From Nitrosopumilus sp. (GTDB taxonomy: Archaea > Thermoproteota > Nitrososphaeria > Nitrososphaerales > Nitrosopumilaceae), in contig OZ242220.1 of assembly GCA_965206745.1 (NCBI GenBank), positions 1,504,001-1,568,000 on the forward strand: a DNA stretch of 64,000 nt, read 5' to 3'. Below, one piece after another: positions 1-36,026 of this stretch. The notes under the pieces are model-generated. The model ran no database searches. It saw only the letters and a list, made by a program, of their open reading frames with translations, and was not told where the DNA came from. A program made the position numbers and the translations under genes. Every line of letters begins with the position of its first letter. The stretch's first letter is position 1.

Positions 1-3000
1 AATGTCCACTCAAACTCGTAGGTTGCAGGATCTTGTATGGCAGATACCGTATCACGTGGAATGGTACTTGTAAATGCGCCGGTGGTAGGATTCAGGCGAT
101 CTCTGAGGGATTCGGGCAGGGTGCTGCCCTCTAGGATGACATAGTTGGATATGGCGTCTGGTGTTGGCAGCTCCGCAGGGTTGTCAACTACATTGTTTAG
201 TGAAGGAATCTCATCACCCTCTGTCACTCTTGCTGCGTAGGAGGTAAATGTTGGCGGGGTGTTGCTGTGGGATACAGTTATTGTGCCGTCCTGCACATCC
301 GGATCTCCTGGAGAGCCGTCATCAAATGTCCATTGGAATGTATAGCGGGCAGGAGGGTCTCCGGCAGCTACCGTATCAAATGGAACAGGGTCTGTAAAGT
401 TACCATTGGTTTCATCCAGGGAAAGTCTGATGTCGTCAGGCAGGTTGCCAATGTCTGGTACGATGGCATATACGGATCTTTGGTCTAAAGCCTCATCAGG
501 GTCTGTAACCACAGTGGACAGGGAATCAAGGATATCACCTTCTGATACTGTCTGCGTGTATTCGGTGAATGTAGGTGGTTCGTTTTCTTCTGTTAGAGCT
601 TGTACATCGAATGGGACGTCTAGAGTGGTCCTATTAACTGTATCATCCAGACTTAATGTGAATGTAACTCTGGTGCCGCCATGAATCTCAGCTGGAGTCC
701 ACGTGAATATGCCATCTTGATCAATCGTTGCATTTGCATTGGCAGTAATGTCAACAGATGATACGTCCCATGTTGGCAGAGGATCGTTTGTGTCAAGATC
801 CCTACCCTCAAAGTCAATTGATATTGTTTCCGATTCAAAAGGTGCTAGATTGGCAGTATCTGGAATGGGATCAATTTCAGGTGCTCGGTTGACGTTGTTT
901 ACTGTAATTGTGCCTTGTCGGTCATATTCATCAAAGCTATCTGTATATATCCATGTAAAGCGGACTGTTCGAGGGTCTGTTGAAATATCCACACGGTTAA
1001 AGTCAAACTTGCCGTCCGGACCAAACTCACCGGTGTTTTCATTCAGAGATCTTCCGATGGATCCAGAGAGGCCACTTGTGATCTCGTATGTACCGTCTGG
1101 ATCTGGTGTCCCATCAGGGTCGATAACAAAGTCAGAGAGGCTTGGGAATCCCTCATTCTCATCTACTGTAGCGACATAGTCAGTAACTGTTGATTCTGAG
1201 TTTGTCTCTACCACATTAAATGCGATGGTATAAGTTGCTACCTTCTCTCCGGGATCAGTCAGGGTGATTATAAATTGGACTGTGCTGCTGCCGTGGGATT
1301 CACCGGGAGTCCATGTGAATGCGCCAGTTGTCCTATCAATGACTGCATTGGTGGTTGCATTTGCCTGTACGGTCCACTCTGGAGGATCATCGCCTGCAAC
1401 AGTGGCAGTACGGGTATCAGGATCAGAGCCATCCATGGTAAAGGATACTGCTTGGTGCTCATCAGGTGTATCATCAACGGCACCCAAAGGACCGTCTATC
1501 ACAGGTGCTCTGTTATAGTTGGTTACAGTGATTGTGCCAGCCCGGACAGGTTCTGGTGTATTGACGCCGTCACTATACCTCCATTGGATGGTGTAGATTC
1601 TGGTCGGGTCTGCATAGGTTGCAGTGTCAAATGGGAATGACTCGTCAAATGCGCCAGTTGTCTCATCAAAGGATTCCATGACGTTATCAGGCAGTGGAGG
1701 GACGCTTGATTCTAACGTGTATACGATGGTGCCAGATGACGATTCCACAGGGTCACTTACTGCACTTGAGAGTGGCGGAATCCTGCCGCCTTCAGATACT
1801 CCGGCATTATATTCAGATAGGTCTGGTATCTCGTCTATTGTTGGTGTGAGTTCCGTCTCAGATACGACAAAGTCAATCCTTACAGAGTCTTTTTCACCTA
1901 CAAAGTCAGTGAGGGTGACGTTAAATGAGACCATATCTCCCTCATCATACTGGCCACCTGGAATCCACAGGAATTGGCCGGTGGCAGGATTAATAATTGC
2001 AGGATTAATGATTGCAGCGTCATCGTTTGGAGATACGCTCCATGTTGGTGAATCATCACCTGGAACAGTAGCAGTACGAGTATCAGGATCCGTACCCTCA
2101 AAGTCAAATGATACCAGTTCGAATTCTGCGGGGTTGGTGTTGGTGACGGTTCGAGTTGTAATTACAGGCGCCCGGTTGTCGTTGCTTACTGTAATTGTGC
2201 CGAACTGATCAAGTGATGTACCAGTGTCGTCTGTATACGTCCATGTAAAGGCAAATGTCTCAGGACCATTAGTGGCATTGAGGTGATCAAATGGGAATGA
2301 CCCGGTAAATGCGCCGGTTGCCTCATCAAAGGTGATGTCATCAGGCAGGACAAGGTTGTCATCTAGGGCATATCTGATGGCAGTATCTATATCATCCTCG
2401 GCAGGGTCGCTGACTGCGATGGAAAGCGGTGGGATAGCCTGTCCTTCAAGGATTGACTGTGAGTATGAGGCAAAGTCTGGAGGATCGTCTCCCGGCGTGG
2501 GTTCAGTGGCAGTTATGACAAATGGGACAGTCTCTGTGACCTGCTCACCTGCAGCATCAATCAGGGTAAATGTAAAGTCTACTGTGCTGCCGCCGTGGGA
2601 TGCACCTGGAATCCACAGGAATGTGCCATTCTCCGGATGAATCGTTGCACTTGCATCAGCGGCAGGGTCAGTAGAGGATACGCTCCACCTTGGCAGAGGA
2701 TCGTTTGTGTCCTCATCAGAGCCGCTTGCGACAAATGACACTATTTCAAACTCAGAGTATGTCCCGGGGCCCGGAATCAGGTCAATTGTAGGTGCTCGGT
2801 TGTCGTTCTCTACAGTCAGGATGCCATGCTGTATAGGAGAGCGTACAGAGTCGTATTCAAGTATCCACTCAAACTCGTAGGTTGCAGGATCCTCCAGGGC
2901 AGATACCGTATCACGTGTAATGAAACCTGCAAATGCGCCGGTGTCATGATTCAGGAGATCTACGAGGGATTCGGGCAGGTTGCCTCCTGTGATGTTGTAG

Positions 3001-6000
3001 AATTGTGTGGCGTCTTGTGAAAGTTCATCAGGGTTGCCAACTACATTGTTTAGTGAAGGAATCTCATCACCCTCTGTCACTCTTTCTGTGTATGAGGTAA
3101 ATGTCGGTTCGACACTTTGAGGAGCTATGATGGTTATGTCAATATTGACACCATCAATGAGAGTTCCTTGATTATCCCGATATTCAAATGACAGATCATC
3201 AGTTGTAGCACCAGATGACGTGCGGTATGTTATAGTAACTATACCAACTGTATCTGTAACGAAAGTGTATGTACCGAAATCAGGTTCCTTACCTATAGAT
3301 ACAGTTATTGGATCTCTCTCGGGATCTGTGACAATTGCCAGAATGTGGTCTGTACCATCGCTTTGCACCACATGGTTCCCAAGAGTGTGGGATGGTGGCT
3401 CGTTTCTCTCCTGCACGTCAACTGTGATGATTCGGTCATCCTTGTCCCCTGCAGGATCAGTGAGGGTGAGCTTGAATGAGGCCGTGGTACTGGCATGAGT
3501 GTCATCAGGGGTCCACGTGAATAGACCGCTTGTCCTGCCAATCTCTGCACCGTCATCATTTGGAGATATGCTCCATGTTGGGGCAGCCTCGCCTGTAGCA
3601 GAATCAGTATCGGGATCATCGCCTGTCATGGTAAATTGCAGGGTATCTCCAGGACTAGGTGAGACAAACGAGGGTGTTGCACCTATCACGGGCTCTCGGT
3701 TGTCGTTGTTTACTCGCAACGAGCCGAATTGTTCCTCTGGTACTGCACCACTGCCGTCTGTATACATCCATGTTATCTCATATCGTATAAAGCCAGGATC
3801 AGAGTCTGTGGTGTTAAATGGGAATGATCCGTCAAAGTCACCGGTGTTCTCATCAAAGTCGACGTCATCAGGCAGGGACGGGCTGATGTCTAACAATTCA
3901 TAACGGATGTCACCGTCTGGCGGAATCTCTACGGGATCTCGGACCAGTTCTGAGAGACTGGGAATTGGACTGCCTTCCAATACTCCCCTCACGTAACGGA
4001 ATATGGCAGGTTCCTCATTTACGTCTGGCGTGTCATCAACATTAGTTATGGTAAAGTCAAGCGGTACATCGTCTTTGTCACCTACAGGATCAGTGAGGGT
4101 GACGTTAAATGAGACTGTGTCTCCCTCGTCATACTGGTCACCCACAATCCACGTGAATGCCCCACTGGTGGAATTGATGTATGCACCGTCATCATTTGGA
4201 GATATGCTCCATGTTGGGGGATCATCACCTGTATCAGTATCTTCATCCATACCCTCAAAGTCAAATGATACTGTTTGGAGTTCTGTAGGGTTTTCGTTGA
4301 AGCCGGTTCGAGTTGTAATTACAGGTGCCCGGTTGTCGTTGTTTACTGTCAGTATGGCAAACTGTTCATCTGATGTACCAGTGCCGTCTGTATACGTCCA
4401 TGTAATGTTATAGGTTACAAAGCCCGGATCAGAGTTTACAGTGTCAAATGGGAACGTGGCTGAAAAGTCACCGGTTGCCCCAATGGCGACAGGCAGTGGA
4501 GGGTCACTTGATACAAATGTATAACTGATGGCACCGACTGTCCCATCCTCGGCAGGGTCGCTGACTGCGATGGAGAGTGACGGGACATCCTGTCCTTCAA
4601 GTACAGTCTGTGAGTATGAGACAATTCGGGGCGGATCGTCACCTGACGTGTTTGGAGTGTCAATTATGTTAAATATGACAGTCTCTGTGTCCAGCTCACC
4701 TGCAGCATCAGTCAAGTTAAATGTAAACAGGATTGTGCTGCCGCCGCGAGACTCATCTGGAATCCACAGGAATGCCCCATTCTCCAGATGAATCTCTGCA
4801 TCAGTGGAGACGGTGGCATTGTCCGATACACTCCACCTTGGCAGAGGATCGTTTGTGTCCTCATCAAAGCCTCGCACGGTAAATGATATTATTTCAAACT
4901 CAGAGTATGTCCTGGGGCCCGGAATCGGATCAACTGTTGGCAGTCTGTTGTTGTTCTCTACAGTTATGGTACTGTACTGCATCGGCGATGTTCCGGTGCC
5001 GTCCTCAAATGTCCACTCAATCTCGTAGGTTACAGAACCCTCCAGGGCAGATACCGTATCAAATGGGAACGTGGCTGAAAAGTCACCGGTTGCCGTATCA
5101 AAGGATCCTCTGATGTCATCAGGCAGGTTGTGTGATGTGATATTATATGTGGATACAAGGTCTGCCTCTGCTTCCTCAGGGTTGGTGACTGCATCAGATA
5201 GTGAAGGGATTGGCGCATCCTCCTGTATCCTTTCTGTATAGGAGGCAAATGTCGGCACATTGTTTGGATCTACTGTAAACGTGTGGATTGCAGTGGCAGG
5301 GATACCTTCCTCATCAGTTATGCTGAATGTGAATTCGACTCCAGTACCGCCATGCACATCACGTGGAGTCCACGAGAATACACCACTCTGAGAAATTGTT
5401 GCATCTGTATTGGCATCAGAGTCATTAGAGGATACGCTCCATGTTGGCGGGTCGTCATTGGTGTCATCATCCCCGCCTAGCAGGGCAACTGGTACATTTT
5501 GACCGACAAAAATCAGTTCAGGTGTACCATCTGGAACCTGGATGGTTGGGAGCTGGTTGAGGTTCGTTACGTTTAGTGTACCAGGCTGATTCGGTGATGT
5601 TGTTCCAGAGCCGTCAGTGAAGGTCCACGCAAACGTAAAGAATTGGAATTCTTGCTCAAATGATACGGTATCAAATGGAATGACAGGACTAAACGCGCCA
5701 GTGTTTTCATTCAGAGTAACTGCAACCATACTCAGATTGCCAATTCCATCTACGATGGCATATCTGGGAGGGGTCTCTGAGGATTCATCAAGGTTGTTGA
5801 CGAAATCAGAGAGGGGAGGAACGGCATCACCTTCTGGCACTGTCTCGGCATACATATCAAATGGGGATGTCACAGCATTGACTGTCAGGGTGTAGGTACC
5901 TGAAGCAGTATCTACAGTGTTTGTTGCATCGTATTCTATTGTAAATTGCCGCGATAATTCTCCGTCAGGTACGACATTATCACTTATAGTACCAGTTATG

Positions 6001-30000: not shown

Positions 30001-33000
30001 TGTCCTGTATATTGTTCAATTGTTGGTCGTGTGTTTACATCCTCCACCTCAAATGGGATGATCATATTGTCTACTTGCTGTCCGGGACCAGTGAGGGTGA
30101 ATGTGAATGTGACTGTGGTGTCGCCGTGAGTATCATCTGGAGTCCACGTGAATACGCCAGTTGTCCTATCAATCGTTGCATCCGTAGCTGTACTTCCCAG
30201 TACAGTCCATTCCGGCGGGTCATCACCTAGATTAGTATCAGGATCAGAGCCAGTCAGCCTAAATGATATCATTTGCTGCTCTGGAGGTGTTTTGTCAATA
30301 TTCACTGGATCTGTCCCTGTTATTATTGGGCGCCGGTTATCATTGGTTACTGTGATTGTGCCTTCCTGGGGACCCTGTGGTGTATTCCTGCCATCACTAT
30401 ATTCCCATACGATGGAATAGGTTCGGGTAGGCTCCAGATAGCTTGCAGTGTCAAATGGGAACATCATTCCAAAGTCACCAGTATTTCGATTCAGAGATAG
30501 TGCAATGTCATCAGGCAGATTGCCGCCTGTGATGGTATATGCGGATTCGTCTAGAGGAATTTCAGTAGGGTTGCTGACTGCATCTGAGAGGGACGGAATC
30601 CTGCCGCCTTCTATTACTCCGACACTATACTCAGACAGAATAGGTGGCTCATTTATGTCACGTGTAAATACTGCTTTAGATACCTCAAATTCAATCACGC
30701 GAGTGGTTTCTGCATCTGAAGGATCAGTGAGGATGACGGTAAACTCGACTGTGGTGTCGCCATGCCCCTCTTTTGGAATCCACAGGAATTCGCCGGTCTC
30801 AGAATCAATATTTGCACCGTCATTCTGGAGGGCCAATCTCCATGTTGGTGCAGCCTCATTCGCATCATCATCTGAAGCAATACTCGTATCAATACGAGTA
30901 TCAAGATCCGTACCGTTAAAGTCAACTGTTACTGCTTGGAATTCTACAGCGTTATAGTTCATCGCCTCTGGAAGAGAATCAATTACAGGGGGACGGTTGA
31001 CGTTCCTTATTTCCAGTTGGCCGTCGTCTAGATTAATTGCATCATTGTTATCGCTATACGTCCAGTCAAAGTTGAGTACTATGGGATCTCGGAAAGTAGT
31101 CACATAATCATAGTTGAAAATGCCTGTGAATCTACGTTCACCGTCTACACGGGGAAGAATCTCTTTTGGTGTAAATACACCAGTCTTGTTATCTAAAGCC
31201 TCCCCAACTGTTGAAGGAATGCTACTTCCTAGATCGTATAAGATGTCGCCATCTACAACATTCTCAACAGGGTCTGTAACTACACTGGAAAAATTTGGAA
31301 TGGTCTGGTTCTCAAATACTATATGTGTGTATGGCACAAACTGGGGTTCCTCATTTACTAGCGTGGGGTCAACATTAGTTATGGTAAATGTGACAGGCTC
31401 TGTGGCAGAGTCACCTGCCGCATCAGTTACAGTGAACATAACATCTATTGTGCGGCCGCCATGCTCATTACCTGGAATCCACCTGAATGTTCCATTCTCC
31501 AGATGAATCGATACATCTGCATCAGCGGCAGGGTCATCAGATGATACGCTCCAGGTTGGTCGACGATCGTTTGTATCATCATCAGAGCCGATCACAGTAA
31601 ATGATATTAGGCCAAACTCAGGGTATGTCGGAAGAATCGAAATCGGTTCAATTGTTGGTTCTCGGTTGTCATTCTCTACAGTTATGGTACCATACTGCAC
31701 CTCTGATGGTTCGGTACCGTCCTCAAATGTCCAAAAGAACTCGTACGTTATGGAATCCTCCAGAGCAGTTACTGCATCATATGTGAACGTCTCTGCAAAG
31801 TTGCCGGTGTTCACATCAAAGGATCCTCTGATGTCATCAGGCAGGTTGCTTGATTCGATGGTATAGCTCAGTACGTTCTCTGCTAAAATTCCATCAGGGT
31901 TTGTAAATACACTAGACAGGGAAGGAATGGCGACATTCTCTGATATCGTTTCTTCGTACGTGTTAAATTGAGATATCCCCCCTACATCAAATGGGATATC
32001 CGTCATGGCTTTTCCTCCACGGCTATCAGCTAGGACAATGTGAGCTATAACACGGGTATTGGCTTGGTCTTGGGTTGGAGTAAATGTGAATAATCCGGAG
32101 TCCCTATCAATATCTGCACCATCAGGAGCATCATCTGGATTGTCAGGCGATATGCTCCATCTTAGTTGTTCATCACCATCAGGATCAGTACCAGTCAGGT
32201 CAAGTCGTACGGTATCTCCAGGATTAGGTGGGATAAAACCAGGAATGTCACCTATTACAGGGTCTTGGTTGGTGTTGTTTACAGTTATCCTACTAGTCTG
32301 CCTCACTGATTCCCCAGAGCCGTCTGTAAATGTCCAGCCAAACTCAAAGGTTGCAGAATCGAGTGCATTGTCTACTGTATCATGGGAGACAACACCATCA
32401 AAGATACCAGTGGTCGTATCCAGAGAAGATGCTATGACCTCTGGGAGGTTTCCAGATTTGATTCTGTATGTGGATATGGGGTCTATTGGATCTTCTACAG
32501 GATTGTCAACTGCAGTAGACAGTGAAAGAAGCGAGCCACCCTCTGCTACTGTTTGTGCGTATTCATCAAATGACGGTGGTGTGTTGCTGTGAAATACAAG
32601 TATTGTACCAGGCATTACTTCTGGGACTTGGCCAGAATTATCTGTATATGCCCACATAAAGTCATAGCGTTCAGGCTCAACATTTCCAGTTGATGTCGTA
32701 TCAAATGGGAACGTGGCTGAAAAGTCACCGGTTTTACGATCAAGGGATTCTGCAATGAGAGTAGGCAGGGTGCCAAATGTTCGGAGTTCATAGTCAATTG
32801 CTGCATCTCCTCCAGTTTCCTCAGGGTCGCTAACGAAACTAGAAAGACTGGGAATTTCCTCTCTTTCTCGTACCCCAGCATTATAAGGTAACACGGTAGG
32901 CACTTCGTTAAGTGGTGGTGGTGTTATAACTATCGGAGCTACATCAAACGCAATAGGCACAGTCGCTGATGCCCTTGAAGGATCAGTCAGGACAATCGTA

Positions 33001-34847
33001 AATGAAATTGGGGTACCGCCATGCTCCTCGCCTGGAATCCACAAAAATTCACCGGTGGTTGGATGAATGGTTGCACCGTCATCGTTGGGCAATAGACTCC
33101 ATGTTGGAGCAGGTTCATCGTCTCCAGTGTCAGGATCCGTGCCGTTTAGAGTAAATGATATGTTGTCAAACTCTACAACACTCCTAGAGATACTAGATGA
33201 GATTGGATCTATTATTGGCAGTTGGTTGTTATTCGTTATAAGCAGTCGGCCCATCTGTATACCTGATTCCCCTGTCTCATCAGTATACCTCCATGTAAAG
33301 GAGACGGATGGGGGATCTGTAAAGGTAGCAGTATAGTCAAATGGGAACTTGACTGGCGGATCAAATTTACCAGTGATCTCATTCAGATTATCCATAATGT
33401 CGTCATAGTCAGAGTCTAGGATCTCAAATGTGACAGGCGTGTCCGGAGACAGACCGGGATTTATAACAGAATCGATGAGATTTGGAATATTTACGTCTTC
33501 ACGCACGGTGTGGTCATAATCAGTAAAGGATAAAATTCTCTGACTCCTTTGAGGAACCACCTCATCTGTATCACGTACATCAAATGTGAGGGTTTGAATA
33601 TCTGTATCTCCTTCAGAATCAGTAAAGGTAAATTCAAATTCAACTGCTGAATCACCGTGCCTGTCATCAGGCCTCCAGAAAAAGCGTCCAGTCTCTTCAT
33701 TAATCGTTGCATCCGTAGGAGTCTCAGATGAGAAAGCCCACGTTGTAACATGATCGTCACCATCAATACCAGGCAGCATAAATTCTATGATATCTCCCTT
33801 GTCAAGGTCGGTATCAATAGATGAAAGGTCACCTATTTTCGGTTCTCTATTAAGTACGGTAAATGTATGTGATAGAGATAATAATGGATCCCCAGTCACA
33901 ACCTCACCAAATACGCGAAATTCAAACGTGACAATTCTACCGATGTCCTCTAGTCCCGGAGTCCAGCTGAAGCTTCCGGTCTCTGAATCAAACGTTGCAG
34001 TCTCATTAGTTGGAGATATGGTGTATGTTATAATACCAAAAACATTCTCGGGTTTCAGCTGAAATTCTATGAATTGATTTGCGTGAAGTGTGTCAGGGAC
34101 GTCATCTCGAATGTTTACCGTAAAAGAAAGGCCGCCATCATTGACCAATAGTGTACCACTTGACCTTTCCAGTACTCCTCCGAGGCCGTCATCATAACTC
34201 CAAATAAAATTATACCTAGTCTGGTCCTGCACGATAAATGGGAACTTGTCTGAAAAGTCACCAGTTATAGGATCCAGAGATTCTGCGACGTGGTCAGGCA
34301 AATCACCACTCTCATACGTGTACATAGGTGTGGCACCAGATGGTATTCCATCAAGATATGTAATTGCATTAGAGAGACCAGGGAGGGCATCATTCTCGTC
34401 TATCTCTTCGGAATACTCAACAAAGTCTGGCAGTCGGTGTTTTACAAACAAATCAAATTCCCTCATTGCAGTAACTCCCGCCTGAGTCGCAGTCAGAGTA
34501 ACATGACATGTCTTGCCGGCATCTGCAGAAGGTGGTCTCCAGGTGAGAACTCCACGTCCAAGAAGACTTAAAATGTTATCATCACTTATTGCACAGTTAT
34601 CACTTGAGACCCCCCAGCTAACAAATTGGAAGCTAAAGGTTGATGTGGTAAATACAAATCTAAACCGGTCTTCCACAATCCCTGTCCTGTCAGAATCGTC
34701 AAACTCATTTGGAAGGTCTATGGATAAGACAATTATTGGTTCTGTTATCACCTGATGCTCTTCTATAGGTGGGTCTGATTGGGCAAATACGGGAATCGTT
34801 GCCAAAGATAAAACTAGACAAAATCCAACTACAAGTGCAATATTCAA
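1..34847 (-). CDS. Giant secreted repeat protein (>=11,615 aa, 3'-partial): alternating cadherin/He_PIG-like Ig modules and a second ~100-aa beta-rich module; putative adhesin or surface filament
   Basis: TTG at 34847 (in-frame TGA upstream at 34857-34859) gives MNIALVVGFCLVLSLATIPVFA|QSDPPIEEH, a Sec signal peptide. Manual translation in the same frame at ~34200-34847, ~11450, ~3120-3400 and 3-60 (...DTVSAIQDPATYEFEWT) gives the same repeat motifs. The ORF track lists no long minus ORF here, as expected if the frame has no stop in the window. Recurrent motifs: NxNRxPxI, GxDxD, PxWS, TGxFxWxP, FTLTDPxG, and FPFDT...YxFxWTYxD. The protein is D/E/T/P-rich. Confidence 0.93.
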   Translation of the reverse strand, partial: MNIALVVGFCLVLSLATIPVFAQSDPPIEEHQVITEPIIVLSIDLPNEFDDSDRTGIVEDRFRFVFTTSTFSFQFVSWGVSSDNCAISDDNILSLLGRGVLTWRPPSADAGKTCHVTLTATQAGVTAMREFDLFVKHRLPDFVEYSEEIDENDALPGLSNAITYLDGIPSGATPMYTYESGDLPDHVAESLDPITGDFSDKFPFIVQDQTRYNFIWSYDDGLGGVLERSSGTLLVNDGGLSFTVNIRDDVPDTLHANQFIEFQLKPENVFGIITYTISPTNETATFDSETGSFSWTPGLEDIGRIVTFEFRVFGEVVTGDPLLSLSHTFTVLNREPKIGDLSSIDTDLDKGDIIEFMLPGIDGDDHVTTWAFSSETPTDATINEETGRFFWRPDDRHGDSAVEFEFTFTDSEGDTDIQTLTFDVRDTDEVVPQRSQRILSFTDYDHTVREDVNIPNLIDSVINPGLSPDTPVTFEILDSDYDDIMDNLNEITGKFDPPVKFPFDYTATFTDPPSVSFTWRYTDETGESGIQMGRLLITNNNQLPIIDPISSSISRSVVEFDNISFTLNGTDPDTGDDEPAPTWSLLPNDDGATIHPTTGEFLWIPGEEHGGTPISFTIVLTDPSRASATVPIAFDVAPIVITPPPLNEVPTVLPYNAGVREREEIPSLSSFVSDPEETGGDAAIDYELRTFGTLPTLIAESLDRKTGDFSATFPFDTTSTGNVEPERYDFMWAYTDNSGQVPEVMPGTILVFHSNTPPSFDEYAQTVAEGGSLLSLSTAVDNPVEDPIDPISTYRIKSGNLPEVIASSLDTTTGIFDGVVSHDTVDNALDSATFEFGWTFTDGSGESVRQTSRITVNNTNQDPVIGDIPGFIPPNPGDTVRLDLTGTDPDGDEQLRWSISPDNPDDAPDGADIDRDSGLFTFTPTQDQANTRVIAHIVLADSRGGKAMTDIPFDVGGISQFNTYEETISENVAIPSLSSVFTNPDGILAENVLSYTIESSNLPDDIRGSFDVNTGNFAETFTYDAVTALEDSITYEFFWTFEDGTEPSEVQYGTITVENDNREPTIEPISILPTYPEFGLISFTVIGSDDDTNDRRPTWSVSSDDPAADADVSIHLENGTFRWIPGNEHGGRTIDVMFTVTDAAGDSATEPVTFTITNVDPTLVNEEPQFVPYTHIVFENQTIPNFSSVVTDPVENVVDGDILYDLGSSIPSTVGEALDNKTGVFTPKEILPRVDGERRFTGIFNYDYVTTFRDPIVLNFDWTYSDNNDAINLDDGQLEIRNVNRPPVIDSLPEAMNYNAVEFQAVTVDFNGTDLDTRIDTSIASDDDANEAAPTWRLALQNDGANIDSETGEFLWIPKEGHGDTTVEFTVILTDPSDAETTRVIEFEVSKAVFTRDINEPPILSEYSVGVIEGGRIPSLSDAVSNPTEIPLDESAYTITGGNLPDDIALSLNRNTGDFGMMFPFDTASYLEPTRTYSIVWEYSDGRNTPQGPQEGTITVTNDNRRPIITGTDPVNIDKTPPEQQMISFRLTGSDPDTNLGDDPPEWTVLGSTATDATIDRTTGVFTWTPDDTHGDTTVTFTFTLTGPGQQVDNMIIPFEVEDVNTRPTIEQYTGQATEGSDEDRIPPLSGVVDNPDEIPEDDISTYTIKSGNLPEVIVSSLHANNGSFRAPVSHDAVDNSLNFQLFEFVWTFTDGTGESVNQTGTLNVTNTNRPPMIDDNPPFDPTPIPGDIVDVPLTGTDDDLDVLAWSISPDIPQGARIDRDTGDFRFAPTRDQANTNVAAHIVLTDARGGTDERVLRFEVGSTLLPPFTSYAETVFENATIPSLSNVVSNLDEIPPDVALSYNIEDGNLPEEILGSFDTTTGNFANKFPFDAVSALENSTTYEFFWRITVGSETSERQFGTLTVANNNQPPTIDLIPGLRTYSEFEIISFTLTGSDPDGNDPQPTWSVSSTDPAADADVSIHLENGTFRWIPGNEHGGHTIDVRFNLTDAAGESVIETVPFTIDDTDPTDVNELAEFIPYFHTVFERQPLPNFSSVVRDPVVDPVDRDIQYVIPSEIPSNIKNAVNTKTGIFDPDESLDQIDYFPYPYVTTFRDPVTLNFIWSYHEQFDEHELDAQLIVKNVNRDPVITIPEGIDFNAAEYQTFSFTLIGEDEDTDGIAEPAPLWSVVANDDGGYINPVNGTFTWTPRDGHGDTTVPFTIVLTDPAGRPATEEIEFRVSRTEITPDINEPPELSEYFVKVLEDKSIPPLSIAVNNPAESPPDNATLYTIESDGTTLPTSIINSLNQRTGAFDESFPFDTTNYANPALNYTVKWIYNDGSPGYTPQTQTGIITVTNDNRRPMIEEPSGIDRTPSEHELLSFDFEGMDLDTATGDDPPEWTVLANATTDAMIDEETGDFTWTPSESHGGSTVRFTFTLTDPGQKVDNEIITFEVAETNTQAPTYAETIPENVPIPSLSSVFTNPDGILAENVLNYAIASSNLPEEILSSFVPTTGEFTNMFTHDAVSALEDSITYEFFWRFTDGTGRSEIQYGTITVENDNRLPTIDPIMVPTTYSEFEIISFNVSGSDEDTNDPLPRWSVSSTNTAANADATIHPENGTFLWIPGESHAGTVDFIFTLTDAAGEDATEPVTFTITDTPNTPGDDAPDFAPYSQSILEGQDIPSLSIAVIDPAEDSTAGAISYALVPSGTTLPEDIAESFDENTGDFSATFPFNTTGSDPGFVQYDITWTYTDGSGASPSEESGTITVNNFNREPVITPPTIDDTLAEFESISFDFEGIDPDTDPATGEAAPTWSISPNDDGAIINPESGVFLWIPGDEHGGDTVSFNVTLTDPAGAADTEEIEFTVTETALTIPDEEPILFDYNAGVSEGDRIPPLSSAVSDPVEDSASGTIAYTLESSVPALPDAVMDSFDDTTGEFGEPFPFNTTTYAEPTRVYTIQWRYSDGVNTPPQDPETGTITVTNENRRPMIEDPSGIDRTPPEQQMTSFTLTGSDPDTRTATVSGDDPPEWTVLANATTDAVIDQNGLFTWTPDDTHGDTTVRFTFTLTDPGQKVDNEIITFEVEDVNTRPRIGQYTGQATEGSNEDRIPPLSGVVDNPDEIPEDDTSIYTIISGLPDVIVSSLNRNNGTFSGNVSHSAVANSLDFQLFVFVWTFEDGTGNPDNQIGILNVTNTNRPPMITNDPPFDSTPNPGDIVQFTLTGEDPDDDDLGWGISPLNLDGAPDGADIDQDGLFTFTPTQDQANTRVIFTVTLTDGRAGKAMKDIAFDVGASPSPTFTSYTERIQEDAPIPSLSDAVTNPEEAEADLVSTYNITSHNLPDDIRGSFDTATGDFSATFPFDTVSALEGSVTYEIEWTFEDGTGTSPMQYSTITVENNNRLPTVDPIPGPRTYSEFEIISFTVRGFDEDTNDPLPRWSVSDNATVSTDAEIHLENGAFLWIPDESRGGSTILFTFNLTDAAGELDTETVIFNIIDTPNTSGDDPPRIVSYSQTVLEGQDVPSLSIAVSDPAEDGTVGTISYTFVSSDPPLPVAIGATGDFSATFPFDTVNSDPGFVTYNITWTYTDGTGTSDEQFAILTVNNDNRAPVITTRTGFNENPTELQTVSFDFEGMDEDTDTGDDPPTWSISPNDDGAYINSTSGAFTWIVGDQYDEGDTVSFNVTLTDPVGDKDDVPLDFTITNVDDTPDVNEEPAIFRYVRGVLEGSPIPSLSELVRDPVEIPPDGDIRYELLDISPSLPDDVDFDENTGDFDGSFPFNTTDSDPGFIRYEITWMYTDGSGAVPEEQFGSLRVNNDNREPVIGATPSFVSPSPGDTLQFTMTGDDPDTDSATGEAAPTWSISPNDDGAEIGRTSGLFTWTPDDTHASTTASFKLTLTDPAGDKDDRIITVDVQERTEPPQSAEPTFTSYTERVAENSVIPSLSDAVDPDTIPPGATLVYDIGEGTLPESLKDLLNTNTGAFTDTIPYDTVSALEDPATYEFEWTLTYDFVTSPVQHGILTVENENRAPTIDLIPGPRTYSEFEIISFIASGSDEDTNDPLPRWSVSSADATVDATIHPENGTFLWIPGESHAGTVDVIFTLTDAADEQVTRTVPFVITDTPNTPESDPPRIVQYSQSILEGQDVPSLSIVVSDPAEDSPDGTISYTFVSSDPPLPGITIDSATGDFSDTFPFDTADSDPGFVNYNITWTYTDDTNPSPPQMFAILTVNNDNREPVITPPNGINNTPAQFQAVSYDFEGMDPDTDDTTGEAAPIWGISPNNDGAIINPATGDFLWIPGGQYGDGDTVSFNITLTDPIGARATEEIEFTVSETAPTTDNEPPVLSEYNAGVSEGGRIPPLSSAVSDPVEDSTTGTPVYTLESSDPPLPAVVSGSFDETTGAFDASFPFDTATYADPTRVYTIQWTYDDGVNTPEPVRAGTITVTNYNRAPVIDGPSGAVDDTPDEGELVSVDFEGMDPDTDTGDDEPEWTVQANATNNAVIDQDGIFTWTPGESHGSSTVHFIITLTDPGEKVATYTIAFDVAETNAPPSLSDTPYSEQVREGDSVLRSLSGAINDPDDTLFPIIRYTHESGELPLGIRLNPDDGTFEGTVSHNATTNALSPERFEFRWTYNDDGNGPNANITQTSSIEVINVNLAPTINTPDTFDPTPNVGDLVEIQFTATHLDGDEELVWSLERGNDQGAEIDARTGFFTYTPPHFHEGGFADRTVQVTDGIITTPATRIIEFTIPVRDPIITIPPDADTTAVVGDPVTFVVTGEDPDGNTLTWSLSDDSSTATGAVLNATTGSSIEFTWTPAEAHIGPNEFTFTLSDGRGGSSTEPHTIIVSAAASELPDTSGPYTVDVDEGQQIPTSLASVIVGVESVPGITYDIVLTEALPSGITLNRDDGTFAGTVPHDATTAGNSPRPFPFEWTYSVGESTSGSQPGTILVDDVSTITAPNGTSTRTEGETVDIPLGATGPGGVTCTITDPRNLPDDLRFNDEACTITGTISDNVVPDGELSRQFTIEYDATNTVDTASGTYTLTVNAVTSPFDMYAETVPEGDAVPPLSDFVNNLDESSETPPRYAIVDGIGNLSMVAVTLNENTGAFSPVIPFDTVSFEQEFQFFTFAWTFTDGSGTTSPNQPGTLNVTNLNQLPTIQVPDGTPELIFVGQNVPVALLGGDDDTNDDPPTWSVSSNDSDANTDATISQSGVFSWTPRDVHGGTGVEFTFSITDEEGIPATAIHTFTVDPNNVPTFASYTERIQEDAPIPSLSDAVTNPEEAEADLVSTYNITSHNLPDDIRGSFDTATGDFSATFPFDTVSALEGSVTYEIEWTFEDGTGTSPMQYSTITVENNNRLPTVDPIPGPRTYSEFEIISFTVRGFDEDTNDPLPRWSVSDNATVSTDAEIHLENGAFLWIPDESRGGSTILFTFNLTDAAGELDTETVIFNIIDTPNTSGDDPPRIVSYSQTVLEGQDVPSLSIAVSDPAEDGTVGAISYTFVSSDPPLPVAIGATGDFSATFPFDTVNSDPGFVTYNITWTYTDGTGTSDEQFAILTVNNDNRAPVITTRTGFNENPTELQTVSFDFEGMDEDTDTGDDPPTWSISPNDDGAYINSTSGAFTWIVGDQYDEGDTVSFNVTLTDPVGDKDDVPLDFTITNVDDTPDVNEEPAIFRYVRGVLEGSPIPSLSELVRDPVEVPPDGAIRYELLDISPDLPDDVDFDENTGDFDGSFPFNTTDSDPGFIRYEITWMYTDGSGAVPEEQFGSLRVNNDNREPVIGATPSFVSPSPGDTLQFTMTGDDPDTDSATGEAAPTWSISPNDDGAEIGRTSGLFTWTPDDTHASTTASFKLTLTDPAGDKDDRIITVDVQERTEPPQSVEPTFTSYTERVAENSVIPSLSDAVDPDTIPPGATLVYDIGEGTLPESLKDLLNTNTGAFRNVIPYDTVSALEDPATYEFEWTLTYDFVTSPVQHGILTVENENRAPTIDLIPGPRTYSEFETISFIASGSDEDTNDPLPRWSVSSADATVDATIHPENGTFLWIPGESHAGTVDVIFTLTDAADEQVTRTVPFVITDTPNTPESDPPRIVQYSQSILEGQDVPSLSIVVSDPAEDSPDGTISYTFVSSDPPLPGITIDSATGDFSDTFPFDTADSDPGFVNYNITWTYTDDTNPSPPQMFAILTVNNDNREPVITPPNGINNTPAQFQAVSYDFEGMDPDTDDTTGEAAPIWGISPNNDGAIINPATGDFLWIPGGQYGDGDTVSFNITLTDPIGARATEEIEFTVSETELTPTIDEIPDLSEYNAGVSEGGRIPPLSSAVSDPVESSSGTIVYTLESSDPPLPAVVSGSFDETTGAFDASFPFDTATYADPTRTYTIQWTYDDGVNTPEPVRAGTITVTNYNRAPVIDGPSGAVDDTPDEGELVSVDFEGMDPDTDTGDDEPEWTVQANATNNAVIDQDGIFTWTPGESHGSSTVHFIITLTDPGEKVATYTIAFDVAETNAPPSLSDTPYSEQVREGDSVLRSLSGAINDPDDTLFPIIRYTHESGELPLGIRLNPDDGTFEGTVSHNATTNALSPERFEFRWTYNDDGNGPNANITQTSSIEVINVNLAPTINTPDTFDPTPNVGDLVEIQFTATHLDGDEELVWSLERGNDQGAEIDARTGFFTYTPPHFHEGGFADRTVQVTDGIITTPATRIIEFTIPVRDPIITIPPDADTTAVVGDPVTFVVTGEDPDGNTLTWSLSDDSSTATGAVLNATTGSSIEFTWTPAEAHIGPNEFTFTLSDGRGGSSTEPHTIIVSAAASELPDTSGPYTVDVDEGQQIPTSLASVIVGVESVPGITYDIVLTEALPSGITLNRDDGTFAGTVPHDATTAGNSPRPFPFEWTYSVGESTSGSQPGTILVDDVSTITAPNGTSTRTEGETVDIPLGATGPGGVTCTITDPRNLPDDLIFDEMNCAITGTISDNVVPDGELSRQFTIEYDATNTVDTASGTYTLTVNAVTSPFDMYAETVPEGDAVPPLSDFVNNLDESSETPPRYAIVDGIGNLSMVAVTLNENTGAFSPVIPFDTVSFEQEFQFFTFAWTFTDGSGTTSPNQPGTLNVTNLNQLPTIQVPDGTPELIFVGQNVPVALLGGDDDTNDDPPTWSVSSNDSDANTDATISQSGVFSWTPRDVHGGTGVEFTFSITDEEGIPATAIHTFTVDPNNVPTFASYTERIQEDAPIPSLSDAVTNPEEAEADLVSTYNITSHNLPDDIRGSFDTATGDFSATFPFDTVSALEGSVTYEIEWTFEDGTGTSPMQYSTITVENNNRLPTVDPIPGPRTYSEFEIISFTVRGFDEDTNDPLPRWSVSDNATVSTDAEIHLENGAFLWIPDESRGGSTILFTFNLTDAAGELDTETVIFNIIDTPNTSGDDPPRIVSYSQTVLEGQDVPSLSIAVSDPAEDGTVGAISYTFVSSDPPLPVAIGATGDFSATFPFDTVNSDPGFVTYNITWTYTDGTGTSDEQFAILTVNNDNRAPVITTRTGFNENPTELQTVSFDFEGMDEDTDTGDDPPTWSISPNDDGAYINSTSGAFTWIVGDQYDEGDTVSFNVTLTDPVGDKDDVPLDFTITNVDDTPDVNEEPAIFRYVRGVLEGSPIPSLSELVRDPVEVPPDGAIRYELLDISPDLPDDVDFDENTGDFDGSFPFNTTDSDPGFIRYEITWMYTDGSGAVPEEQFGSLRVNNDNREPVIGATPSFVSPSPGDTLQFTMTGDDPDTDSATGEAAPTWSISPNDDGAEIGRTSGLFTWTPDDTHASTTASFKLTLTDPAGDKDDRIITVDVQERTEPPQSVEPTFTSYTERVAENSVIPSLSDAVDPDTIPPGATLVYDIGEGTLPESLKDLLNTNTGAFRNVIPYDTVSALEDPATYEFEWTLTYNSVTSPVQHGILTVENENRAPTIDLIPGPRTYSEFEIISFIASGSDEDTNDPLPRWSVSSADATVDATIHPENGTFLWIPGESHAGTVDVIFTLTDAADEQVTRTVPFVITDTPNTPESDPPRIVQYSQSILEGQDVPSLSIVVSDPAEDSPDGTISYTFVSSDPPLPGITIDSATGDFSDTFPFDTADSDPGFVNYNITWTYTDDTNPSPPQMFAILTVNNDNREPVITPPNGINNTPAQFQAVSYDFEGMDPDTDDTTGEAAPIWGISPNNDGAIINPATGDFLWIPGGQYGDGDTVSFNITLTDPIGARATEEIEFTVSETELTPTIDEIPDLSEYNAGVSEGGRIPPLSSAVSDPVESSSGTIVYTLESSDPPLPAVVSGSFDETTGAFDASFPFDTATYADPTRTYTIQWTYDDGVNTPEPVRAGTITVTNYNRAPVIDGTSGIDRNPSEGQTVFFTLFGSDPDTRTATVAGDDPPEWTVQANATNNAVIDRINGAFTWPTDHTHGGSTVEFTFVLTDPGKKVVTRIITFDVAEIIGLPGTVTNGYAASVNEGQTIDFPLSDAVDDPGDPTSPITYTHESGELPLGIDLNPDGSFVGTVSHDATTAEDSPEPFTFMWRYSDGPTESLIQTSTIHVTDVPTVPESVVPTFTSYTERVAENSVIPSLSDAVDPDTIPPGATLVYDIGEGTLPESLKDLLNTNTGAFRNVIPYDTVSALEDPATYEFEWTLTYDFVTSPVQHGILTVENENRAPTIDLIPGPRTYSEFETISFIASGSDEDTNDPLPRWSVSSADATVDATIHPENGTFLWIPGESHAGTVDVIFTLTDAADEQVTRTVPFVITDTPNTPESDPPRIVQYSQSILEGQDVPSLSIVVSDPAEDSPDGTISYTFVSSDPPLPGITIDSATGDFSDTFPFDTADSDPGFVNYNITWTYTDDTNPSPPQMFAILTVNNDNREPVITPPNGINNTPAQFQAVSYDFEGMDPDTDDTTGEAAPIWGISPNNDGAIINPATGDFLWIPGGQYGDGDTVSFNITLTDPIGARATEEIEFTVSETELTPTIDEIPDLSEYNAGVSEGGRIPPLSSAVSDPVEDSTTGTPVYTLESSDPPLPAVVSGSFDETTGAFDASFPFDTATYADPTRVYTIQWTYDDGVNTPEPVRAGTITVTNYNRAPVIDGPSGAVDDTPDEGELVSVDFEGMDPDTDTGDDEPEWTVQANATNNAVIDQDGIFTWTPGESHGSSTVHFIITLTDPGEKVATYTIAFDVAETNAPPSLSDTPYSEQVREGDSVLRSLSGAINDPDDTLFPIIRYTHESGELPLGIRLNPDDGTFEGTVSHNATTNALSPERFEFRWTYNDDGNGPNANITQTSSIEVINVNLAPTINTPDTFDPTPNVGDLVEIQFTATHLDGDEELVWSLERGNDQGAEIDARTGFFTYTPPHFHEGGFADRTVQVTDGIITTPATRIIEFTIPVRDPIITIPPDADTTAVVGDPVTFVVTGEDPDGNTLTWSLSDDSSTATGAVLNATTGSSIEFTWTPAEAHIGPNEFTFTLSDGRGGSSTEPHTIIVSAAASELPDTSGPYTVDVDEGQQIPTSLASVIVGVESVPGITYDIVLTEALPSGITLNRDDGTFAGTVPHDATTAGNSPRPFPFEWTYSVGESTSGSQPGTILVDDVSTITAPNGTSTRTEGETVDIPLGATGPGGVTCTITDPRNLPDDLIFDEMNCAITGTISDNVVPDGELSRQFTIEYDATNTVDTASGTYTLTVNAVTSPFDMYAETVPEGDAVPPLSDFVNNLDESSETPPRYAIVDGIGNLSMVAVTLNENTGAFSPVIPFDTVSFEQEFQFFTFAWTFTDGSGTTSPNQPGTLNVTNLNQLPTIQVPDGTPELIFVGQNVPVALLGGDDDTNDDPPTWSVSSNDSDANTDATISQSGVFSWTPRDVHGGTGVEFTFSITDEEGIPATAIHTFTVDPNNVPTFASYTERIQEDAPIPSLSDAVTNPEEAEADLVSTYNITSHNLPDDIRGSFDTATGDFSATFPFDTVSALEGSVTYEIEWTFEDGTGTSPMQYSTITVENNNRLPTVDPIPGPRTYSEFEIISFTVRGFDEDTNDPLPRWSVSDNATVSTDAEIHLENGAFLWIPDESRGGSTILFTFNLTDAAGELDTETVIFNIIDTPNTSGDDPPRIVSYSQTVLEGQDVPSLSIAVSDPAEDGTVGAISYTFVSSDPPLPVAIGATGDFSATFPFDTVNSDPGFVTYNITWTYTDGTGTSDEQFAILTVNNDNRAPVITTRTGFNENPTELQTVSFDFEGMDEDTDTGDDPPTWSISPNDDGAYINSTSGAFTWIVGDQYDEGDTVSFNVTLTDPVGDKDDVPLDFTITNVDDTPDVNEEPAIFRYVRGVLEGSPIPSLSELVRDPVEIPPDGDIRYELLDISPSLPDDVDFDENTGDFDGSFPFNTTDSDPGFIRYEITWMYTDGSGAVPEEQFGSLRVNNDNREPVIGATPSFVSPSPGDTLQFTMTGDDPDTDSATGEAAPTWSISPNDDGAEIGRTSGLFTWTPDDTHASTTASFKLTLTDPAGDKDDRIITVDVQERNEPPSHTLGNHVVQSDGTDHILAIVTDPERDPITVSIGKEPDFGTYTFVTDTVGIVTITYRTSSGATTDDLSFEYRDNQGTLIDGVNIDITIIAPQSVEPTFTSYTERVTEGDEIPSLNNVVGNPDELSQDATQFYNITGGNLPESLVDLLNHDTGAFAGFITRDTVSALEDPATYEFEWILEYDSVRSPIQHGILTVENDNRAPTIDLIPGPGTYSEFEIVSFVASGSDEDTNDPLPRWSVSSTDPAADASATIHPENGTFLWIPGASHGGSTVDFTFTLIDAAGEQVTETVPFVITATEPTPGDDPPDFASYSQSILEGQAIPPLSIAVSDPAEDDIDTAIRYALDDNLVLPDDITFDEATGAFTGSFPFDHLNATNGPETFAFTWTYTDDTGTSLDQFGTITVSNDNRAPVITTRTVTNTNPAEFELVSFDFEGTDPDTRTATVPGDDSPTWSVSPNDDAAIINPAIINPATGQFLWIPGGQYDEGDMVSFNVTLTDFVGEKDSVRIDFVVSETELTPTIDEIPDLSEYNAGVSEGGRIPPLSSAVSDPVESSSGTIVYTLESSVPPLPDNVMESFDETTGAFDESFPFDTATYADPTRIYTIQWRYSDGVNTPEPVRAGTITVTNYNRAPVIDGPLGAVDDTPDEHQAVSFTMDGSDPDTRTATVAGDDPPEWTVQANATTNAVIDRTTGAFTWTPGESHGSSTVQFIITLTDPGEKVATYTIAFNVVETNSESTVTDYVATVDENEGFPSLSDFVIDPDGTPDPDGTYEITSGLSGSIGRSLNENTGEFGPDGKFDFNRVDISTDPRTVRFTWIYTDSFDEYDRQGTITVNNVNRAPEIDPIPDTANLAPFESETISIDFEGRDLDTNDPLPTWDVSSVDITANANATIDQDGIFTWTPAEIHGGTRVTFTLSLDDTVNRTTLDVPFDVQALTEENEPPTFTEYTQTVSEGDILDSLSTVVTDPDEALDQRSVYAIVPDIGNLPDDIRLSLDETNGNFTDPVPFDTVAAGDPPARYTFQWTFDDGSPGDPDVQDGTITVSHSNTPPTFTSYAARVTEGDEIPSLNNVVDNPAELPTPDAISNYVILEGSTLPESLRDRLNPTTGAFTSTIPRDTVSAIQDPATYEFEWT
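3405..25022. repeat. Near-identical intragenic tandem blocks: 5,853-bp period (1,951 codons) over ~9856-25022, plus a further copy at ~3405-9237 (offset 8,061 bp) and a ~1.6-kb sub-duplication (~7650-9237 vs ~9856-11442)
   Basis: Identical or near-identical shadow ORFs recur at 3499/11560/17413/23266, 5917/13978/19831 and 7780/9988/15841/21694. The offsets 5853, 8061 and 2208/2205 are all multiples of 3. Boundaries were checked by eye. Confidence 0.95.
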
Positions 34848-34863
34848 TGAGGATATTCAAATC

Positions 34864-34880
34864 TAATTATATATAACCTA
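34864..34880 (-). promoter_or_regulatory. Archaeal TATA box for the giant ORF (leaderless)
   Basis: Minus strand reads GGTTATATATAATT about 20-30 nt upstream of the TTG at 34847. Confidence 0.65.
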
Positions 34881-35207: not shown

Positions 35208-35208
35208 G

Positions 35209-35283
35209 CGCCCTCGGCGGGATTTGAACACGCGTCTCAGCCGTGACAGGGCCGAATTCTAGACCGGGCTATACTACAAGGGC
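35209..35283 (-). tRNA. tRNA-Asp (GTC)
   Basis: GCCCTTG/CGAGGGC acceptor stem, anticodon arm CGGCC-CTGTCAC-GGCTG, T loop TTCAAAT, discriminator G, no encoded CCA. Confidence 0.95.
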
Positions 35284-35379: not shown

Positions 35380-35453
35380 GGGTCTATGGCGCAGCCAGGT
35401 AGCGCACCGGACTTTTAATCCGGTTGTCGAGGGTCCGAATCCCTCTAGACCCG
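35380..35453 (+). tRNA. tRNA-Lys (TTT)
   Basis: GGGTCTA/TAGACCC acceptor stem, anticodon arm CCGGA-CTTTTAA-TCCGG, T arm GAGGG-TCCGAAT-CCCTC, discriminator G. Confidence 0.95.
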
Positions 35454-36026
35454 CCTTCCATACCTTCAAAGAGCATTCCCCTCATTCAGGCAACATCACA
35501 CAAAGTCCCAATATGCAGAAGACACTCCAAAGATTGCAAATAATCTCAAGACGGTACAACCACCAGTGGCAGTCCATAAAACATGCGATAAATTGCAATG
35601 AAATTTCCAATCCAGGGGATATCAAACTGCACAAGATTAGATTCCTGATAACCATTGGCATCAGATGGACTGATTTTGAATCATCTGGTCTGAGTGGACA
35701 AGTTCCAGATACTTTTAATCGTATTTAATGTTGTTCTAAGAGACGTGTGGGGAATCCACATCTCCAAGTGATCAAAGGCAATGACGTATGCATCTTTTGG
35801 CAACCATCAATGTTTACCATGCAACATTGCAGACAGGTACATTCTAAGACGTGCAAGGATCTGGCATGACTCAGGCTGCTTGATTCCTTGCCGGCACGAG
35901 TCTGTCCTGCCATTCCAAACATTGCGGTGCAATACAGTGTGTTTTGTGTGCAGTACTGCCAAAGGAGAGAGGTGTCGTGTCAGATAGACACCAGTGTTTT
36001 TTATATTTCAAAGAGAATCAAGCCAT

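Follow-up and report, generated by a model that had tools for sequence, protein, structure and literature searches.

What kind of protein is encoded by a reading frame so long that it runs off the edge of the DNA in which it was noticed, and is that frame a gene at all? The question is raised by a stretch of 64,000 nucleotides (nt) from the genome of a Nitrosopumilus sp., positions 1504001-1568000 of contig C1 of the source genome G000 (the window, meaning the whole stretch that was analysed), for which a listing of open reading frames (ORFs) gives, at window positions 3-34847, a TTG-started minus-strand ORF of 11,615 amino acids (aa), open at the window edge. An earlier note on the window had described this ORF as a single giant gene, a description that our results bear out; as regards its length, the frame was read correctly, whereas the figure of ~11,615 aa falls short, the full ORF encoding 18,728 aa. 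From sequence comparison and modelling, we consider it likely that the ORF is a real gene for a giant Sec-exported cell-surface fibre of ~2.0 MDa, acting as an adhesin or tether.

Window 3-34847, minus strand: the part of the giant ORF within the window, codons 1-11,615 of 18,728
Contig 1482661-1482663, minus strand: stop codon of the giant ORF, beyond the window
Window 34867-34876, minus strand: TATA-like box TTATATATAA, 19 nt upstream of the TTG, read directly
Window 34845-34847, minus strand: TTG start codon, the first start codon past the upstream stop
Window 34782-34847, minus strand: predicted signal peptide, residues 1-22, with cleavage after VFA, from hydrophobicity and a motif of the paralogs

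Reading the minus strand past the window edge, as the earlier note had proposed, leads to a stop at contig position 1482661 with no in-frame stop before it; the complete ORF spans contig positions 1482661-1538847 on the minus strand, i.e. 18,728 codons or 56,187 bp, with 0 N. Such a frame is not a chance product, because its terminal stop is the only stop that it contains, compared with 303-1,942 stops in each of the five remaining frames of this DNA. The gene makes up 3.0% of the 1,861,144-bp (1.86 Mb) genome, which has a G+C content of 41.2% and is assembled in 2 contigs at 99.6% completeness. The genome contains an archaeal amoA gene (386 bits, above the cut-off), and those relatives that carry names are labelled 'MAG: Nitrosopumilus sp.' (MAG, metagenome-assembled genome); placement of the host in the Nitrosopumilaceae thus appears reasonable, and its earlier identification as an ammonia-oxidizing archaeon is upheld.

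The TTG start and TATA box that had been reported can both be read in the sequence and have counterparts in paralogs. On inspection of the DNA upstream of nine further starts, belonging to eight surface-protein genes, a TATA-like box was found ~17-22 nt before the ATG in six further surface-protein genes of the same genome (17, 18 and 19 nt in the three in which the spacing was counted), with no clear TATA-like box upstream of the 1,681-aa and 1,919-aa genes. Given a box ~19 nt before the start, the leader of the giant transcript would be very short or absent. We take the TTG to be the true start because the N-terminus, (M)NIALVVGFCLVLSLATIPVFA|QSD, aligns with those of ATG-started paralogs (MNIFLITIVCLVLSVSLTPVFAGD, ...AVIPAFAQS and ...GVIPAFAQT); in the 1,681-aa paralog, the position of the TTG is taken by the ATG (MNIF... 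versus (M)NIA...). The N-terminus also provides the only Kyte-Doolittle window above 1.6 in the protein, besides a weak in-module peak near residue 18,100, and the motif ...IP(V/A)FA-Q(S/T) is kept in three paralogs. The proposed N-terminal export signal is consistent with both observations, being the sole strong hydrophobic stretch and having the VFA|QS motif in common with the paralogs, and it would probably be cleaved after VFA.

Modules, linkers and charge

Identity autocorrelation of the protein gives a basic period of ~205-212 aa and higher periods of 624, 735, 1,951 and 2,687 aa. A census of modules, employing hidden Markov models (HMMs) that started from two seed modules and were refined by iteration on the giant protein, gives a total of ~176 modules of roughly 100 aa.

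A modules (~96 aa): 84, mostly alternating with B modules
B modules (~98 aa): 85, giving 169 modules with those of type A and accounting for 87.7% of the protein in sum with them
Two-cysteine modules (~100 aa): 6, the tested one being a He_PIG module (32 bits against a cut-off of 24)
Other: 1 module, with a sub-threshold Big_9 match only
Window 25022-34724, minus strand: diverged N-terminal B/A array, residues ~42-3,275 (module HMM census; He_PIG 61.8 bits)
Window 31362-31976, minus strand: example B-A unit, residues 958-1,162, of which a structure was modelled
Window 19785-20084, minus strand: example two-cysteine module of ~100 aa, a gap in the A/B census (He_PIG 32 bits)

One two-cysteine He_PIG module, outside the window, is broken by ~25 tandem eight-residue repeats rich in Thr, Pro, Gly and Ile, a block present a single time in the giant (residues 12,261-12,528, contig ~1501264-1502067). 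A Pfam scan of three pieces, amounting to 6,201 of the 18,728 aa, with the module HMMs covering the rest, identified He_PIG (61.8, 78.8 and 132.5 bits; Pfam cut-off 24), Big_9 (102.1 and 99.6 bits; cut-off 23.6) and Cadherin_5 (50.7 and 47.8 bits; cut-off 26.5) modules, all above the cut-offs, as the earlier note had foreseen.

The fold predicted for the repeating unit agrees with these assignments. An AlphaFold2 model of the B-A unit, made with 26 internal copies as the alignment, has a predicted local distance difference test (pLDDT) score of 91.1 and a predicted template modelling (pTM) score of 0.76; its best match in the PDB by Foldseek is SraP (4m00_A, E 3.3e-9, query TM-score, TMq, 0.62), followed by protocadherin and cadherin tandems, with 498 PDB matches at E≤1e-3 overall. 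By sequence, the module profile matches protocadherin-15 across the linker (E 7.7e-4). Prediction and structure search are thus in accord on the cadherin-like module fold that had been suggested, and the model amounts to a high-confidence prediction of a cadherin-tandem fold for the B-A pair.

Cadherins bind calcium through motifs with the consensus DxNDNxP and DxD, which the xNxNxxP and GxDxD motifs of the giant protein resemble. The former is present at 72 of the 74 B-to-A junctions (30 of the 32 distinct sequences), in half of all cases (37/74) in the closer form N[D/N]NxxP, and GxDxD is present in 75 of the 84 A modules, such that the acidic motifs described before are indeed there; an LDxxTGxF-like motif, present in 73 of the 85 B modules, and an invariant Glu near the module start likewise resemble cadherin motifs. 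By contrast, the A-to-B junctions (n = 72) consist of 10-16 residues rich in Pro, Thr and Asp, without xNxNxxP. The earlier proposal of a rod with cadherin-type linkers therefore holds at every second junction (B to A) and fails at the Pro/Thr/Asp-rich A-to-B junctions. The two junction types suggest ~85 stiff two-domain units joined by short hinges, and a chain of this type is more likely than one uniformly rigid rod. Ca2+ may be bound at the B-to-A linkers, as the motifs there suggest. A cadherin domain is ~4.5 nm long, and 176 modules of this size would give an extended length of ~0.8 µm.

The giant protein has a molecular mass of 2.01 MDa and an isoelectric point (pI) of ~4.05, with an excess of Asp and Glu over Lys and Arg of ~2,535 residues, 0.46% Lys, 2.9% Arg, 17 Cys and 177 N-x-S/T sequons. 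These values are of interest with respect to a different job for the same molecule, i.e. as a coat or brush, polyanionic and glycosylated, that lies beyond the S-layer and is protective or captures cations (ammonium). The acidic bias and scarcity of Lys and Arg are shared with NmSLP, the S-layer protein of N. maritimus, whose bias is interpreted as an ammonium trap in the part of PMC11153153 available to us; the sequons fit glycosylation, the near-neutral evolution of residues in the repeats (see below) fits a bulk physical role, and halomucin (9,159 aa), for which a protective role has been proposed, is, by the accessible portion of PMC4378361, a secreted archaeal giant located around the cells. 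Tandem arrays of cadherin-like and He_PIG modules are, however, typical of adhesins, SraP being an adhesion protein by the title of its entry, and a 2-MDa single-copy protein is a costly means of providing charge compared with an S-layer that has two 1,725-aa genes; a coat is, in our assessment, the main functional alternative and quite unlikely to be what the protein is for.

Internal repeats and the assembled length

Beyond its modular periodicity, the gene contains much longer repeats at the DNA level, the basic unit of which is 5,853 bp (1,951 aa) with a 2,205-bp subunit; the first 9.8 kb of the gene has an internal DNA identity of just 72-78%.

Window 1-25021, minus strand: the window part of the near-identical super-repeat region (self-blastn), which as a whole is gene nt 9,826-51,521 and runs past the window to contig ~1487327
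Repeat pair of 10.7 kb: 99.89% identity (self-blastn)
Repeat pair of 9.9 kb: 97.7% identity (self-blastn)
Repeat pairs of 5.86 kb: 99.3-99.6% identity (self-blastn)

Three plus-strand ORFs of 314 aa (window 5917-6861, 13978-14922 and 19831-20775) are antisense copies of one another, because the giant gene has internal repeats of 5,853 and 8,061 bp, and are very unlikely to be genes.

How the repeats evolve bears on whether the frame is used. The ratio of nonsynonymous to synonymous substitution rates (dN/dS) is 0.91-1.05 between recent repeat copies (1.6 for the most recent pair, on 12 differences) and 0.62-0.84 between older copies, which suggests that residues in the repeats are weakly constrained. 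A ratio of ~1 between recent copies would suit a silent or decaying relic, which is not translated and whose frame owes its openness to recent duplication and not to selection; so would the failure to find an N-terminal ortholog among the 120 further genus genomes searched. Against a relic stand the ratios for older copies, and the 0 stops in 18,728 codons: four repeat pairs, with 113-205 differing sites, have none, compared with 2.6-5.7 expected per pair for neutral, random substitutions, these tests sharing a history and hence not being independent. Promoter, start, signal and tail domain are moreover intact and match those of paralogs, and a diverged copy of the unique N-terminal part is present in runs X3 and X8, which come from other studies. 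We therefore regard a relic as very improbable; the pattern fits recent duplication and homogenisation of what appears to be a translated gene.

Of more consequence is the possibility that the gene is real, with a length that is partly a product of assembly, near-identical repeats of 5.9-16.7 kb having been mis-resolved or varying among cells, such that the number of super-repeats would be lower or higher than assembled and the real size would not be 18,728 aa. Repeats of 10.7 kb and 5.86 kb, at the identities given above, are beyond the resolving power of short reads, and the contigs from four short-read runs all break inside the gene, none spanning it; the 18.7k protein is also absent, at 100% identity, from the representative library searched. 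In run X1, which may be the source sample of the assembly, eight pieces of short-read contig match the unique N-terminal 10 kb with 0 differences at a depth of 491-560, and a repeat-derived unitig, the 23-mer of which occurs 6 times in the assembled gene, has a depth of 2,690.5, i.e. 5.0-5.5 times that of single-copy sequence. In the reads, too, the array is thus genuinely present in multiple copies, the ratio supporting at least 5 copies of the tested unit while being slightly below the 6 assembled copies. An assembly of 2 contigs at 99.6% completeness is, further, hard to reach without long reads, any two of the repeat copies compared are told apart by 12-205 differences, which is enough for accurate long reads to place them, and the frame is kept across every assembled junction. 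On balance, partial misassembly is unlikely, as is, to a like degree, a true number of repeat units that differs from the assembled one. The contigs of runs X3 and X8 match at 90-99% identity, contig 15 of X3 having many indels relative to the gene in a diverged stretch (22 gaps); those of run X9, guessed to be RNA, are nearly the same as those of the DNA run X8 and have no bearing on transcription.

Relatives of the N-terminal region are distant. Matches to the N-terminal 440 aa were obtained in 55 of 121 genomes of the genus including the source genome, outside which they extend over about one module, with a best E-value of 6.5e-9. A word-indexed search of 5.8 billion proteins, which may miss relatives, gave, in the range 5,500-17,500 aa, only five relatives of the first 3,200 residues, with identities of 25-26%.

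The C-terminal domain

The earlier note had looked to the region past the window for an anchor or adhesive tip, and a conserved 321-aa domain was found there, at the end of the protein.

Contig 1482664-1483626 (L001:4-966), minus strand: 321-aa C-terminal domain, beyond the window

The last 321 aa belong to no Pfam or NCBIfam family (NCBIfam at E≤0.1), the lone match, to DUF2436, being below its cut-off. An AlphaFold2 model of the domain (pLDDT 84.3) has two Ig-like sandwiches followed by helices at 257-277 and 295-320. Searches with the model gave generic Ig matches: Foldseek against the PDB returned no match at E≤0.001, the top one (1.0e-03) being generic antibody/Ig, and in a wide structure search the best Z-score was 8.6 (the V-type Ig of VCBP3), at the head of a flat list and within the common range. 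The domain profile matched nothing among PDB sequences at E≤1, and the best ESM Atlas score, 0.82 for a 'hypothetical protein', lies below the useful range; no function for the domain emerges from any of these searches. A two-copy complex prediction (score 0.00 against a mark of 0.42) speaks neither for nor against self-association.

The distribution of the domain is more informative. Six open frames of the genome end in it (18,731, 5,232, 3,984, 2,978, 1,631 and 1,257 codons), together making up ~5.4% of the genome, and the domains of the five paralogs are 74-79% identical to that of the giant. In an exhaustive HMMER search of 1.84 billion representatives, 605 proteins passed E≤1e-3, and 171 of them also passed E≤1e-30. 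Of 188 relatives, 174 have at most 30 residues between the end of the domain and the C-terminus, and only two of the 188 have a later transmembrane-like stretch; a hydrophobic N-terminus is present in 103 of the 171 Met-started relatives, and the passenger parts vary (fn3, DUF5011, LVIVD, Big_9 and He_PIG). No Pfam family lies on the domain in any of the 7 members scanned, the hits of one member being N-terminal to it. A Cys pair, D161, N172, G174 and G179 are invariant or nearly so in the alignment, the Cys pair fitting an extracellular location. Within the genus the domain is present in 26 of 151 genomes (E≤1e-20); none of 16 genomes that represent 16 further families of the order has a match (E≤1e-3).

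The giant itself has no transmembrane segment, its C-terminus being without a hydrophobic stretch. Two candidates for the nature of the ending were rejected: an archaeosortase-type sorting signal (PGF-CTERM and similar), there being no C-terminal helix of that kind and no NCBIfam match, and a part or relative of an S-layer protein, there being no match in PDB sequences or in the S-layer protein ortholog of the genome. Because it is a constant end-piece on varied exported passengers that lack a membrane span, in the five paralogs as in hundreds of Nitrosopumilus-type proteins, the domain may have an anchoring or sorting role, and we think that it is probably a surface anchor.

The fibre reading would then work as follows. 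After export and cleavage of the signal, the C-terminal domain would hold the protein on the envelope by non-covalent contact with protein or glycan; Ca2+ at the cadherin-type B-to-A linkers would stiffen each two-domain unit, the Pro/Thr-rich A-to-B linkers serving as short hinges, and the N-terminal end could reach several hundred nm from the cell. The fibre would be an adhesin or a tether to particles, surfaces or other cells, its length having arisen as 5.9-kb units were recently duplicated within the gene and homogenised by recombination. A bolder version, which we regard as speculative and improbable, is that the 321-aa domain represents an undescribed surface-display system of Nitrosopumilus-type archaea, docking many exported passengers, which here mounts a near-micrometre polyanionic fibre, tuned in length by recombination of 5.9-kb repeats, as both a tether and a cation-gathering antenna beyond the S-layer.

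Several observations weigh against an anchored, Ca2+-stiffened fibre of the assembled length. Lys and Arg are both missing from the signal N-region, and it is unusual for a transcript with almost no leader to start translation at TTG. Half of the inter-module junctions are without a cadherin-type motif, and it is from such motifs that Ca2+ binding is deduced. A dN/dS of ~0.9-1.05 implies little constraint on residues in the repeats, and the copy number of the 5.9-10.7-kb repeats (96-99.9% identity) is derived from the assembly and one depth check. Since none of the 120 further genus genomes searched yielded an ortholog of the N-terminal 440 aa, conservation is no voucher for function, and the anchor role is argued from the position and distribution of the tail domain, the fold matches of which are to generic Ig.

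Surroundings, known systems and meaning

The neighbouring genes place the giant gene in what is, from their predicted products, a cell-surface island. A pair of tRNA genes lies just upstream of the giant gene; tRNA genes are common integration sites.

Window 35208-35283, minus strand: tRNA-Asp(GTC), ~360 nt upstream of the giant gene
Window 35380-35455, plus strand: tRNA-Lys(TTT), divergent from tRNA-Asp
Window 36636-37349 and 37352-39862: two ORFs with hydrophobic N-termini, which could be pilin-like
Window 39904-41757, plus strand: polytopic membrane protein, UpsF-like (98.7 bits to UpsF, below the cut-off)
Window 41838-43349, minus strand: FlaI/UpsE/TadA-like ATPase (T2SSE 92.8 bits; FlaI 212.6 bits, under the cut-off)
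Window 43419-49178: 1,919-aa ORF with a signal at the N-terminus, a transmembrane helix at the C-terminus and, in the central part, three hydrophobic segments
Window 52346-57217 and 57680-61864: exported surface proteins of 1,623 and 1,394 aa
Window 62304-63998, continuing to contig 1582002: C-terminal end of the 5,232-codon paralog, with the tail domain (79% identity)

The 13 kb adjoining the tRNA pair has raised G+C, and an archaeal type IV pilus-like set at window 36.6-43.3 kb has a G+C content of 48-51%, compared with 41% for the genome. The 1,919-aa ORF beside the pilus-like ATPase matches no Pfam or NCBIfam family. The 1,623- and 1,394-aa proteins have nearly identical signal peptides and promoters, and their C-terminal endings (...FYLGVDPP.. 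and ...AYNMTT.C), which are unlike that of the giant, are each seen again in further large ORFs of this genome, which brings the C-terminal 'end-piece' families to at least three. Downstream of the stop of the giant gene lie housekeeping genes (glutamyl-tRNA reductase and biotin carboxylase/carboxyltransferase), and no dedicated secretion genes were detected beside it among the neighbours scanned. Elsewhere on the contig, two 1,725-codon ORFs (1010067-1015244 and 1031096-1036273) have identical last 25 residues; the one tested is an ortholog of the N. maritimus S-layer protein (8c8k, 1,971 bits), and the S-layer gene appears to be duplicated in the genome.

Among characterised systems, the cadherin-like (CDHL) modules of the staphylococcal adhesin SraP (4m00) and bacterial giants with He_PIG and Big_9 modules are alike in having the same Pfam families, tandem β-sandwiches and an N-terminal signal. 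The most similar very long proteins (5,516-6,890 aa, ~25% identity), which carry these domains and one of which is named by NCBI as a 'tandem-95 repeat protein', are bacterial, whereas the protein described here is archaeal, three times longer and has a tail domain not found in them; nor does it have an LPXTG, type IX secretion (T9SS)-type or PGF-CTERM end. Classical cadherins and protocadherins, such as protocadherin-15 and cadherin-23, have a like two-domain fold with a weak sequence match (E 7.7e-4, as above), but the giant has the motif at every second junction only, no transmembrane or cytoplasmic part and 11-20% identity to them; at best, it works like a cadherin array rather than being a member of the animal family. 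RTX adhesins share with the giant their long Ig-like arrays. Those adhesins, including LapA, SiiE and MpIBP, are exported by type I secretion systems (T1SS) as Ca2+-stiffened Ig-like arrays that project from the cell, with RTX repeats at the C-terminus and no N-terminal Sec signal. Assignment of the giant as a type I-secreted RTX adhesin was rejected in view of its Sec-type N-terminus and the lack of an RTX family in its last 1,500 aa; the neighbours scanned (pilus-like and housekeeping genes only) included no ATP-binding cassette (ABC) or T1SS genes.

Three further systems are set beside the giant from published accounts. Halomucin of Haloquadratum walsbyi, likewise an archaeal giant, has a signal sequence, is secreted to surround the cell and, according to the part of PMC4378361 available, was once the largest known archaeal protein; compared with it by description, the present protein is twice as long and is made of cadherin-like modules. 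Giant1-5 of Apilactobacillus kunkeei provide a parallel in the investment of a small genome, 6% of 1.5 Mb being in giant surface proteins, but are bacterial and of 3,000-8,000 aa (PMC12863079, in the portion available, and again by description). NmSLP (8c8k) has Ig-like arrays, strong negative charge and low Lys and Arg in common with the giant (PMC11153153, accessible sections); its comparison with the tail domain, however, gives no detectable similarity, and the S-layer protein orthologs are the separate 1,725-aa ORFs.

Within the genus, the giant ORF is the largest of the tail-bearing open frames of 151 genomes, followed by frames of 11,434 codons (genome G124), 7,683 (G120) and 7,128 (G124). 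In G124, the tail domain (C1:674765-675712) stands at the end of the 11,434-codon frame, and several more frames are of 6,300-7,100 codons. Giant tail-bearing genes thus recur in the genus and are, as far as comparison indicates, not orthologs of the gene described here. The earlier note had stated that proteins of ~10,000 aa are known in Cenarchaeum and Nitrosopumilus; we could not trace this to a paper, although an 11,434-aa tail-bearing frame is present in another genome of the genus. In the library searched, giant proteins from Nitrosopumilus or from further ammonia-oxidizing archaea are the subject of no paper that we found, and the available part of PMC12153357 contains nothing on such proteins; Table S11 of PMC7848895, as described in the accessible text, reports cadherin and Ig domains in Thaumarchaeota and may include comparable proteins. 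In the sections available, proteins >10,000 aa are described as far fewer in Archaea than in Bacteria, and mostly from Asgard archaea (10.1101/2023.11.21.568195), and archaeal proteins >5,000 aa as few in UniProt (PMC11573180). That the giant is among the longest archaeal proteins is likely but not established.

The overall results are consistent with the giant being, most likely, an intact exported protein with repeats of the cadherin-like/He_PIG type and a tail specific to its family, which most likely anchors it. At 18,728 aa, it extends the range of archaeal giants with a thaumarchaeal protein. There is also a practical warning, in that short-read assemblies and window-limited ORF listings will break or miss such genes. 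The tail domain is the more general lead, having 605 representatives, no named family and many kinds of passenger; an anchoring role, if real, would account for the display of proteins by these archaea on or through an S-layer without a membrane span, and the domain would then offer a handle for tagging or pulling down the surface proteins of these organisms. Marine ammonia oxidizers are usually viewed as streamlined planktonic cells; the presence of 3.0% of a 1.86-Mb genome in one surface protein, and of ~5.4% in six, suggests that attachment or surface engineering is a major investment for this organism.

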